From Bacilli bacterium (lineage in GTDB: Bacteria; Bacillota_I; Bacilli_A; RF39; UBA660): a stretch of 64,000 bases of DNA. A program made the position numbers and the translations under genes. Shown here piece after piece: positions 25,692 through 30,980 of this stretch (position 1 is the stretch's first letter; each line of letters starts with the position of its first letter). Below the pieces are notes generated by a model. The model saw nothing but the letters and a program-made list of their open reading frames with translations, did not search any database and was not told where the DNA came from. Location of the stretch: contig JAFRIU010000047.1 in assembly GCA_017432645.1 (NCBI GenBank), positions 12,107-76,106 of the forward strand, given 5' to 3'.

Positions 25692-25705
25692 AAAGCTCTT
25701 TTAAT
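25677..25705. terminator. bidirectional terminator (11-bp stem) between convergent operons
   Basis: AAAGAGCTTTC, loop ata, GAAAGCTCTTT spans both stop codons, with T-runs on both strands. Confidence 0.6.
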
Positions 25706-25913
25706 TTACTTTTAAATCTTTCAAAGCCTCATCGGCATCCTTGTTAATCTCTACTGTATTCTCTAAGAATTTAGAATATCCTTCTACTGTCGCAGCAAAA
25801 TCATCAATATCAGAAGATTTTCTTCCTTGCATTAATTTTCGAATGATTTCAACCTGAGCAACTAAGTCTTTGGAAACATTTAGAATTTCTTCATAGGTTA
25901 ATTTTTCAATCAT
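25701..25913 (-). CDS. small helical-hairpin protein, candidate T7SS substrate or chaperone (70 aa)
   Basis: RBS GGAGGTG precedes the start. The ATG overlaps the previous stop (ATGATTGA). Predicted helix-loop-helix. Last gene of the essC operon. Confidence 0.45.
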   Translation of the reverse strand: MIEKLTYEEILNVSKDLVAQVEIIRKLMQGRKSSDIDDFAATVEGYSKFLENTVEINKDADEALKDLKVN

Positions 25914-29400: not shown

Positions 29401-30980
29401 AGTTCCAAAGAAACTTCTTTGGCTTCATCCAAATTAGTAGCAAAATAACGCATCGTTCTCTCATCATTCCAGTTATGAGGAGCTATTTTTAAATACTCCC
29501 AATTAGCAGCGTTTTGCTCATTGGTAAATACAACGATCTTCAAATCTTCATAACTATGATAAGCCAAAACTTGAAGAAGCAATCCGTCCATAATTTGGTT
29601 TTTATTAATAACCGTACCAATAACCGCAACAATATTCTTTTGAACAAAATTCAAAGCAATTGGTACATTTTCTAACGTTTTAGATGCTGCGCCAAGCTTA
29701 TAGACCTCACGTAATAAATCATCATCTTTCAAAGAGAAATGTTCTTCAGGAACATTAATATTTCCCTTTAACTCAGTAGATCCAACTCCCAAACGTAAAT
29801 CAAGAAAGTCCTCTTGGGTAATCTCTCTTTCCCATAAATTTCTCTTTTTCTGATAAATAATTTCTTTAATTTGATACAAAGGCAAATAATTATCAATTAA
29901 AATTTGTCTTTGAATCTTCATCTCCGTTTGAATCATTTCTTTTCTAGATTCCAAATAAGCTGTATATTTTGTCTGTCTCTCTTCCTCTGCCTTTTTTCTC
30001 ATCTTATTTTGATAACGTTTTTGTAAAAGTGGGAAAAGTAAAGACATACCTAACATAGTAATGGTTAAAACTAATCCTGGTAAAACACTTTCCAAATCAG
30101 CCGTTCCATTTGCAAGACCAGCAACAGAAGTATAGCCTGTTACCATAGAAGTCATAGCCATAGTAAGCATTGGCCCAATCGTAAAGAATAAAGGAGTCTT
30201 ATCTTCTTCTTGTTCTCCAGGAGGAGAATCAATAGAAATATTAACCTCTTCTATTCCTGTTTTAAAACGAGGTGATTTATAAAAATAGTCATCTTCCTTG
30301 TAGAACTCAATACCTTCTTCATCTGGATTATCAAATTCTACTTGTTTTTGAACAACAATTCCAACAGACTGGAAGGAAGACTCATTCACTCTCAAATAAT
30401 TAGGAATTTGATTAACAATCAAAGTATCTTTCATGATAATAATTTTTAAACCCATGATAAAAATCATATCACCATACTCTAATTGTCTCTTCGTGATAGC
30501 TACATTATTTACATAAGTTCCATATTTACTATTCAAGTCTTCAATGGTCCAAACACCATTATTATAAATTAATTTAGCCTGCTGCTTCGAAACCATTGGA
30601 TAATTATAAAAAATCTCTGCTCGACTATCACTACCAATAATGATTTCTTTTTGATCAGATACTTTTAATTTAGAAATTCCCTTCTCAATAGAAGGAGAAC
30701 AATACAACATTACATATTCATTATCTGTATTAATCTTTAATAAATAAATACCATAATCTTTTAAAATAGCAGATTCTACCTCTTTGTCTCCAAGCATAAT
30801 CTTGGTTTCAAAGTCACTCTTTATTTTCCATTCACCATCAGATTCTTCAACGTTAATCAAGTTCCTAGTATTGCCATAATAATCTTTATCTGTAATCCAA
30901 TAATTACCTGATACTTTTATGGGTAAAAAGAAATTATAAATTTTTCTCTTTTTAATCAATCGTACTATCACTAGAATCAC
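26403..30980 (-). CDS. essC: type VII secretion FtsK/SpoIIIE-family ATPase EssC
   Basis: 1525 aa. Two N-terminal FHA-like domains, two TM helices near aa 270-320, then three P-loop ATPase domains (GMTGAGKSEF and GSAGSGKE Walker A boxes). Confidence 0.85.
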   Translation of the reverse strand: MILVIVRLIKKRKIYNFFLPIKVSGNYWITDKDYYGNTRNLINVEESDGEWKIKSDFETKIMLGDKEVESAILKDYGIYLLKINTDNEYVMLYCSPSIEKGISKLKVSDQKEIIIGSDSRAEIFYNYPMVSKQQAKLIYNNGVWTIEDLNSKYGTYVNNVAITKRQLEYGDMIFIMGLKIIIMKDTLIVNQIPNYLRVNESSFQSVGIVVQKQVEFDNPDEEGIEFYKEDDYFYKSPRFKTGIEEVNISIDSPPGEQEEDKTPLFFTIGPMLTMAMTSMVTGYTSVAGLANGTADLESVLPGLVLTITMLGMSLLFPLLQKRYQNKMRKKAEEERQTKYTAYLESRKEMIQTEMKIQRQILIDNYLPLYQIKEIIYQKKRNLWEREITQEDFLDLRLGVGSTELKGNINVPEEHFSLKDDDLLREVYKLGAASKTLENVPIALNFVQKNIVAVIGTVINKNQIMDGLLLQVLAYHSYEDLKIVVFTNEQNAANWEYLKIAPHNWNDERTMRYFATNLDEAKEVSLELEKEMQARKFKDSNGRMEINTVDYKHYKPYYLIITDDYKLVRDVELIKDVCEMPVNFGFSLIVVSPRLVNIPNECKTFISLGDKKSGVFESELVSTKQQEFVADFDPTLNILECCKIIANIPIDIVKENRVLPQSVSFLEMYNVGMVEQLNILNRWKINDPTKSLQAPVGLDSSRELFKLDLHEKAHGPHGLIAGMTGAGKSEFIISYVLSMALNYHPYEVSFILIDYKGGGLTGAFENRETGIRLPHLAGTITNLDTVEMNRALASVQSELRKRQRLFNEARDKLNESTIDIYKYQSLYRRGLVQNPISHLFIISDEFAELKDQRPEFMEQLISTARIGRALGVHLILATQKPSGVVNDQIWSNSKFRICLRVQDKSDSMDMIKCPDAAELKTTGRFYLQVGYNELFAMGQAAWAGAKYYPMEKRKKKVDQSISVVDNLGNIIKSMDTKLSDVIAPAQGEEVTNILKYIVDQAQKEDIHIDKLWLDRIPDVIYIDKLKEKYHYKPQKNVINPIIGEYDDPDNQLQNLLTLPLSQDGNTIIFGSAGSGKELMLSSIIYSCISNHDSKEVNFYILDFGAETLTMFRQAPHVGEVILSTEAEKISNLFKMINGILLERKKIFVDYNGSYDFYIHHGGKQIPLIVIVINNVEAFFEMYNDYEEIIGQMTRDCLKYGVLFIFSTNGTNTVRYRLRQNFRQNIALQFNDSMDYSSVIAGARRKEPSKVYGRGLVDRGGVYEFQTAYAYAEEKMSDYIKTVSRKLGEICEYKAAKIPILPEVVDHEFIKDYLGSLASVPIGVEKSSLSIATVNLTDKFMYNITGEDIAADTSFISGFICNVSSTPSVESLVFDTNGILSGMKNDDVLYAKDTCQATMDKLKEAYEANDSSKTTVCFVLSINYLLSKLDPTAKMEFTNLIENCKTRDNIKFIIIDNIDVIKSINYESWYKGSVNLAEGIWLGNGIANQFTLKITTNSRVLRAEVEQGFGYVIYKGKASLVKLMSDE

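Follow-up and report, generated by a model that had tools for sequence, protein, structure and literature searches.

Type VII secretion systems (T7SSs) have only three near-universal parts in common, an ATPase (TsxC), a WXG100 protein (TsxA) and a ubiquitin-like protein (TsxB) (PMC11217815). Besides the T7SSb of Bacillus subtilis and Staphylococcus aureus, eight subtypes with other accessory proteins (T7SSc to T7SSj) were described from RefSeq genomes by Garrett, Higginson and Palmer in 2024, T7SSg being the simplest published (PMC11217815). WXG100 proteins form head-to-tail dimers, with the export arm of one protomer adjoining the WxG turn of the other to make a bipartite signal (PMC10765036). 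Cryo-electron microscopy of the B. subtilis system places the ubiquitin-like protein YukD in the grip of the FHA and DUF domains of the ATPase YukB, whose FHA domains bind YukC as well (PMC12637312). Two questions about these systems stand open: which of the components translocation really requires, and by what features of its substrates the ATPase recognises them.

The present study concerns a T7SS operon in a 64,000-nucleotide stretch of DNA (hereafter the window; 30% GC) from a Bacilli bacterium (contig JAFRIU010000047.1). Four close-packed open reading frames (ORFs) occupy positions 25701-30980 of the minus strand, all of them where the first-pass annotation had placed them: essC, followed by genes for proteins of 85, 72 and 70 amino acids. 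The reading that we hold, with moderate confidence, is that the four genes (for an FHA-bearing EssC, a ubiquitin-fold protein and a WXG100-derived pair) make up a T7SS module that exports a half-length Esx-like heterodimer. The main addition to the first-pass annotation is the origin and the complementary architecture of the two smallest proteins.

Origin of the two small helical proteins

The 72- and 70-residue products, here named MID (the tip protein) and LAST (the arm protein), had been put forward earlier as candidates for cargo or adaptors. That they are helical hairpins held true; the idea of a new kind of cargo did not, since alignment of hidden Markov models (HMMs) makes them out to be truncated descendants of a WXG100 pair. 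The evidence comes from a relative of the operon. Searched against 1.84 billion representative proteins, the LAST profile matched 80 proteins only, nearly all of about 70 residues, and retrieved a single true WXG100 protein (P0437, 101 aa, designated A2; E = 2.6e-4), which scores 37.5 bits against the Pfam WXG100 model (cutoff 27.3). The contig encoding it (locus L048; ENA ERZ28760353 contig_2930) shares the gene order of the operon: an EssC homologue (49% identical over 1201 aa) precedes an 85-aa protein (37% identical) and two WXG100 proteins of 96 and 101 residues (A1 and A2), both Pfam-positive.

The two window proteins align with different parts of this pair. Positions 6-47 of the MID family HMM match residues 23-64 of A1 (36.6 bits), in an alignment centred on an A-W-S-G turn; MID is devoid of some 20 N-terminal and 30 C-terminal helical residues. 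By this criterion, MID is clearly homologous to the middle 42 residues of a WXG100 protein that Pfam recognises. The LAST family HMM aligns to A2 in two blocks (positions 1-31 to residues 1-31, and 33-66 to 60-93). Relative to A2, a 28-residue tryptophan-containing tip is deleted, and the base of the helices and the C-terminal export arm are kept. MID corresponding to the A1 tip and LAST to A2 minus its tip, the two deletions appear complementary, and the alignments indicate that MID and LAST descend from a WXG100 (EsxA/EsxB-like) pair. The two are not recognisable as paralogues of each other (hhalign probability 0.4%).

In MID, an ordered tip (aa 1-52, helix-AGWQS-helix) is joined by a short, variable linker to a LEVLGND peptide at the C-terminus. 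The MID tryptophan (W25) is kept in 71 of 74 family sequences; glycine at W+2 is found in only five of the 74, this position being mostly serine or asparagine. The Pfam scan gave no PF06013 (WXG100) match for MID, whose ordered part spans only 52 residues, and NCBIfam scans of the 72-aa family returned nothing consistent. The terminal peptide (LEALGND in the family consensus) ends the protein in 28-30 of 39 species and is absent from variants whose long tails are acidic or PQ-rich. It may constitute an EssC-binding signal. Across species, MID ranges from 62 to 186 residues, owing to the variable, often acidic or PQ-rich linker that follows the ordered 52 aa. Six loci, L005 (9678-9992), L018, L038, L039, L041 and L042, show the tail expanded from about 15 to more than 100 residues of acidic or P/Q/T-rich low-complexity sequence, for total lengths of 104-186 aa; LEALGND is kept in some of these (L018, L039) and lost in others. 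In the divergent relative L044 (9766-10353), the ORF selection shows no gene for the tip protein, and the ORF of the arm protein is longer at its upstream end, giving 117 aa.

The AlphaFold2 model of LAST (predicted local distance difference test score, pLDDT, 90.7) shows helices at 7-27 and 34-69, the second overhanging the first. The comparison with EsxA/EsxB structures proposed in the first-pass annotation was favourable in part: the model is a hairpin and Esx proteins head its PDB matches in Foldseek (Geobacillus EsxA, B. anthracis EsxB, CFP-10/ESAT-6), at E-values (0.19 or worse) that are not significant. LAST scores below the Pfam WXG100 cutoff. Weak matches to NF035934 (ESAT6_2) are found in 32 of 37 family members, with E-values up to 0.1 and at best 8e-4, far below the curated cutoff; in the window LAST the match falls on the second helix. 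This helix carries the sequence NKDAD (aa 57-61), which aligns with YQAAD of A2 and stands where an export arm would have its YxxxD/E motif; in CFP-10, too, that motif lies 13 residues from the C-terminus (PMC10765036). Position 57 is asparagine in 88 of 123 sequences and tyrosine in 17; position 61 is aspartate in 118 and glutamate in four. Family-wide, the distance of the (N/Y)xxxD motif to the C-terminus is 11-20 residues.

When the three small-protein families were each searched as profiles against PDB sequences, only chance matches came up. Median ratios of non-synonymous to synonymous substitution (dN/dS; about 40 species, dS about 1) were 0.16 for the 85-aa, 0.21 for the 72-aa and 0.32 for the 70-aa gene. 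This purifying selection indicates that the three small ORFs are real genes.

Small WXG100-like hairpins commonly supply the export arm for LXG toxins (PMC10765036), and an export arm is exactly what the 70-aa protein keeps. MID and LAST might accordingly be not cargo but Lap-like, WXG100-like adaptors that act in the cytoplasm to target a larger substrate, the gene for which lies elsewhere. We find this unlikely. Adaptor genes normally adjoin that of their toxin, whereas no toxin, immunity, LXG, RHS or other large helical-N-terminus gene was seen near the operon in the loci examined. Furthermore, the homologous positions in L048 are taken by a core-type WXG100 pair, straight after the ubiquitin-like gene.

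EssC, the ubiquitin-like protein and the missing accessory components

The large protein is a T7SS EssC, as had been proposed, and not a paralogue of the chromosome-partitioning ATPase FtsK. It scores 990.5 bits (cutoff 778.4) over aa 231-1521 against TIGR03928 (T7_EssCb_Firm, an NCBIfam equivalog), and 50.8 bits against FtsK models, for a cutoff of 1566. Pfam identifies FtsK_SpoIIIE and FHA matches. Among solved structures, B. subtilis YukB is the best match (9qks, 8e-122), ahead of actinobacterial EccC proteins.

The domain structure given in the first-pass annotation (FHA-FHA, two transmembrane segments, three ATPase domains) had to be amended. The second FHA domain is present and also aligns to solved FHA domains (aa 108-185). 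The first is putative: residues 1-100 match neither FHA nor anything else by sequence. In the alignment to solved domains, FHA2 has GS for GR and SKQQ for SRxH, thus lacking the phosphothreonine-binding residues. The same loss characterises the EssC FHA of T7SSb (PMC11217815). Two hydrophobic segments may form a transmembrane hairpin; only the second exceeded the 1.6 hydropathy threshold, the first being read from the sequence. As for the ATPase domains, D1 alone bears a canonical Walker A motif; inspection of the translation by eye gives GSAGSGKE at the equivalent D2 site. Orthologues are 58-77% identical to the window EssC. Mean column conservation in 42 orthologues is highest in D1 (0.94), reaches 0.85 in the FHA1 region and is lowest in D3 (0.68), the most variable part.

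The 85-aa protein of the window gives no Pfam YukD match and, among 11 diverse family members, one does (E 0.058). Its AlphaFold2 model (pLDDT 88.3) follows a beta-beta-alpha-beta-beta order and has T7SS ubiquitin-like proteins among its top fold matches. The model thus assigns it a ubiquitin/YukD fold, in agreement with the first-pass annotation. The C-terminus is ILL or ILI, without Gly-Gly, a feature also of EsaB/YukD (PMC11217815). YukD being clamped by the FHA and DUF domains of YukB, EssC and its ubiquitin-like partner would be expected to stay together.

None of the other components of T7SSb was found. Among 28 window proteins scanned with Pfam, none matched YukC/EssB, EssA, EsaA, WXG100 or LXG; the rest of the window contains mainly ribosomal-protein and other housekeeping genes. 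Precomputed annotations of L001, a ruminant-gut metagenome contig to which the window DNA is identical, list no YukC/EssB, EsaA, EssA or WXG100 either, nor do those of the other loci fetched. The statement that the window holds no EssB, EsaA, EssA or canonical WXG100 gene of about 100 codons is thereby confirmed. The survey extends to the relatives: in about 50 of them, representing at least 40 species, the genes annotated or sampled up to 10 kb from the operon included no EssB, EsaA, EssA or LXG. Ten large or recurrent ORFs of no assigned function within this distance were also scanned with Pfam and yielded no T7SS component; eight were unrelated housekeeping or defence genes (tRNA synthetase subunits, CorA, methylase, helicase) and two had no Pfam match. 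A 570-aa gene beside essC in some relatives was considered as an extra component and rejected, as it reads by eye as an acyl-CoA synthetase next to a TetR-like regulator. Other essC-adjacent genes in relatives read as unrelated enzymes.

The absence of EssB, EsaA and EssA is not as exceptional as the first-pass annotation implied, since subtypes T7SSc to T7SSj use other accessory proteins (PMC11217815). The same fact bears on whether the operon could be an ordinary T7SSb with a split locus, its EssB/YukC, EsaA/YueB, EssA and perhaps a canonical EsxA and LXG toxins being encoded elsewhere. The window EssC does pass the Firmicute EssC equivalog model. Moreover, the FHA region is strongly conserved and, in B. 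subtilis, binds YukC as well as YukD (PMC12637312), which makes an unlinked membrane partner of EssC possible. Yet partner genes were found neither in the 64-kb window nor, in the survey just described, within 10 kb of the operon, and the described T7SS subtypes all have clustered cores (PMC11217815). We hold a split locus to be rather doubtful. This clustering, together with the use of other accessory proteins by subtypes c to j, makes us lean to a self-sufficient minimal system over a split locus, by a clear if not decisive preference. Stated in full, namely that EssC and the ubiquitin-like protein are by themselves a complete translocon of a walled Gram-positive cell, with a naturally minimised half-length Esx heterodimer (hardly more than the bipartite secretion signal, made of the W-turn of one chain and the export arm of the other) as cargo, the idea is put forward tentatively, being itself on the unlikely side.

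Distribution, operon features and neighbouring genes

When GTDB species were scanned, each represented by a single genome, 40 proved to have the operon, and more divergent members occur on metagenome contigs. All 40 are uncultured, represented by metagenome-assembled genomes (MAGs) labelled Bacilli, Erysipelotrichaceae, Mollicutes, Tenericutes or Bacillales. The order essC, 85-aa gene, tip-protein gene, arm-protein gene holds in every locus (in three or four, one small gene was masked by the ORF selection). Most loci also have a common neighbourhood, with rplM-rpsI and often ZIP upstream, and SpoIID-like, phospholipase-C-like, Abi_2 and HtrA genes downstream. The most divergent members are arranged alike; L050-L053 share the neighbourhood, and L049 is a 1.1-kb contig with operon genes only. 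A metagenome scan with the alignment of the ubiquitin-like protein produced 219 matches, only to close relatives (68% identical or more). In uncultured low-GC Bacilli from gut and rumen, the operon forms a stable module of the chromosome that is inherited vertically; it is neither a mobile competition island nor a relic.

The features of the operon are collected in Table 1. The tight spacing and strong ribosome binding sites noted before were verified: the 72-aa and 70-aa genes overlap by 8 nt, the remaining intergenic gaps measure 9-11 nt, and Shine-Dalgarno sequences precede the 85-aa and 72-aa genes (AGGAGG) and the 70-aa gene (GGAGG). For essC, a GTG at 30971 (1522 aa) is more likely to be the actual start than the first GTG, because translation is called from there on the identical contig L001 and GGGGTGA lies upstream. 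Promoter-like sites such as that upstream of essC are no rarer than chance in this AT-rich DNA. At the distal end of the operon, a terminator hairpin lies between the stop codon of the 70-aa gene and the convergent gene.

Table 1. Positions of the operon genes, protein motifs and expression signals in the window
Feature	Position	Strand	Remarks
essC (TsxC), membrane FtsK/SpoIIIE-type T7SS ATPase	26403..30980	-	1525 aa from first GTG
FHA domain 2 of EssC	30462..30644 (aa 113-173)	-	Pfam FHA 5.7e-14
Two hydrophobic EssC segments, putative transmembrane hairpin	30024..30197 (aa 262-289, 299-319)	-	hydropathy and sequence
Walker A GMTGAGKS, ATPase domain D1 (aa 721)	28797..28820	-	only canonical P-loop in EssC
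85-aa ubiquitin-like (beta-grasp) protein, EsaB/YukD/TsxB analogue, without C-terminal Gly-Gly	26134..26391	-	
72-aa MID protein, predicted WXG100-derived hairpin tip	25906..26124	-	
LEVLGND motif of MID (family consensus LEALGND)	25909..25929	-	extreme C-terminus
70-aa LAST protein, predicted WXG100-derived hairpin, tip deleted	25701..25913	-	
NKDAD of LAST (aa 57-61), putative YxxxD/E export-arm equivalent	25731..25745	-	13 residues from C-terminus
Bidirectional intrinsic terminator	25675..25703	.	13-bp-stem hairpin, T-runs on both strands; common to convergent SpoIID-like gene
Promoter-like TTGTAA-17 nt-TATAAT upstream of essC	31007..31035	-	10/12 matches; positional evidence only

Could the operon be the decaying remnant of a once-complete T7SS that secretes nothing? 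The operon lacks accessory genes, its WXG100 proteins are shortened, and the essC gene of L048 combines an N-terminal deletion with an in-frame TGA beside a poly-A tract. In detail, this gene (5545-9432) lacks the region matching aa 96-334 of the window EssC (FHA2 and both transmembrane segments); the TGA occurs at codon 84, next to a run of 11 A, and a remnant resembling the second transmembrane segment is present in another frame. The L048 gene is either a pseudogene or the product of an assembly or homopolymer error. Against decay of the operon stand four ORFs intact in about 50 loci, dN/dS values of 0.16-0.32 at saturated dS, a D1 column conservation of 94% with Walker A kept, and ribosome binding sites and a terminator that are intact. 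Loss of function is therefore highly improbable.

The flanking genes are those named in the first-pass annotation. A ZIP transporter (Pfam Zip, 2.8e-24) is encoded on the divergent side. On the convergent side lies a SpoIID/LytB-like gene, which scores below NCBIfam cutoffs and whose L052 orthologue carries PF08486. Further cell-wall hydrolase genes accompany the operon besides this one. A leaderless M23-like peptidase (weak Pfam match; HCH motif read by eye) is encoded at 31874-32893 (minus strand) in the window. The M23-like gene and a gene for a small, apparently multi-pass membrane protein lie upstream of the operon in most species. Six relatives (L032, L040, L043, L045, L052 and L053) have an Amidase_3 gene directly upstream of essC on the same strand. 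A functional link of these hydrolases to the operon is speculation. The T7SSb of S. aureus reportedly recruits a dedicated wall hydrolase, EssH.

Downstream of the operon, an Abi_2 (abortive-infection-type) gene (22557-23528, minus strand) overlaps a gene for an HtrA-like Trypsin-PDZ protease (21512-22582, minus strand). The pair is kept in nearly all relatives, an unusually stable synteny for a defence-type gene. One species group (L005, L006 and L007) has a HerA-like ATPase gene (DUF87/HerA_C; 14442-17477 in L005) inserted after HtrA. In L005 it is followed by a Mob_Pre relaxase gene, and the two may belong to a small integrated element.

Proposed mechanism and comparison with known systems

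We envisage that the ubiquitin-like protein would clamp or stabilise EssC at its FHA and DUF (D0) domains, in the way that YukD binds YukB. Because WXG100 dimers pack head-to-tail, the halves retained here (the MID tip on one side, the LAST base and arm on the other) would be those in contact. MID and LAST would form a half-length four-helix bundle in which the bipartite secretion signal is kept and the opposite end discarded. This heterodimer would be recognised and docked by the C-terminal ATPase domains of EssC and exported through an EssC hexamer. The LEALGND tail of MID could provide a second contact, by analogy with the CFP-10 C-terminus, which binds EccC D3. The pair is probably the main cargo and co-factor of the system, with a housekeeping role (in the envelope or between cells) and not one in polymorphic-toxin warfare, as no toxin, immunity or LXG gene is linked to the operon and the locus is syntenic across species.

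Several observations weigh against export of a half-length Esx-like heterodimer. MID and LAST score below the Pfam WXG100 cutoff, and the profile searches of PDB sequences brought up no Esx protein; the Foldseek E-values for LAST fall short of significance. The only relative found with full-length WXG100 proteins, L048, has a damaged essC. In the clade of the window, the tyrosine of the export arm is replaced by asparagine and the glycine of WxG mostly by serine or asparagine. About a quarter of the species lack the LEALGND tail. When its presence was tested against every EssC column, with D3 as the expected site, no column discriminated. The conserved FHA1 region (0.85) must also be counted here, FHA contacting EssB/YukC too in B. 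subtilis, and the half-bundle itself is drawn from alignments and the published geometry of other WXG100 dimers.

A strictly conserved module made of only the three near-universal types of part naturally suggests itself as a candidate minimal system. Through their complementary truncation, MID and LAST keep the W-turn of one chain and the export arm of the other, which is what the bipartite-signal model predicts to be essential. If EssC and the ubiquitin-like protein were indeed self-sufficient, the operon would define the irreducible type VII core and offer a four-gene system for reconstitution.

The closest counterpart of the machinery is T7SSb. As in B. subtilis and S. aureus, EssC belongs to the EssC equivalog, with YukB as its nearest solved relative, and has an N-terminal FHA domain without the phosphothreonine-binding residues. 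There is again a separate protein, here of predicted ubiquitin fold, without Gly-Gly and encoded directly after essC. Unlike T7SSb, the operon has no EssB, EsaA or EssA, in the window or beside it in the relatives examined, and no homodimeric EsxA of about 100 aa but, apparently, two different WXG100 derivatives of reduced length. Pfam YukD does not recognise the ubiquitin-like protein, and no linked LXG toxin or immunity genes were found.

In composition, the operon resembles T7SSg (TsgA1, TsgA2, TsgB, TsgC, TsgL), which likewise combines two unlike WXG100 proteins with a ubiquitin-like protein and an ATPase (PMC11217815). It differs in that EssC carries FHA, whereas TsgC is without FHA domains (PMC11217815), and in that the DUF5050 beta-propeller protein TsgL and Tad pilus genes are not among the scanned window proteins. 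The T7SSg WXG100 proteins are not described as shortened (PMC11217815), unlike MID and LAST.

The substrate pair itself is reminiscent of mycobacterial ESAT-6/CFP-10 (EsxA/EsxB). Two different hairpins are encoded in tandem, one with a YxxxD/E-type arm some 13 residues from its C-terminus and the other supplying the W-turn, and a conserved peptide at the very C-terminus may serve as the signal that binds the ATPase. In contrast to ESAT-6/CFP-10, the partners are about 70 aa each, with half of the hairpin retained; tyrosine has changed to asparagine in the window clade; and the candidate C-terminal signal belongs to the partner with the W-turn and not to the one with the export arm. Also unlike the mycobacterial system, the machinery is of the EssC type and not EccB/C/D/E. 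A literature search turned up no subtype named beyond T7SSj and nothing relevant linking type VII secretion with uncultured reduced-genome Bacilli. Probably this gut and rumen lineage, represented by MAGs only, fell outside the published T7SS survey, which used RefSeq alone. The operon is distinct from the published subtypes T7SSb to T7SSj.

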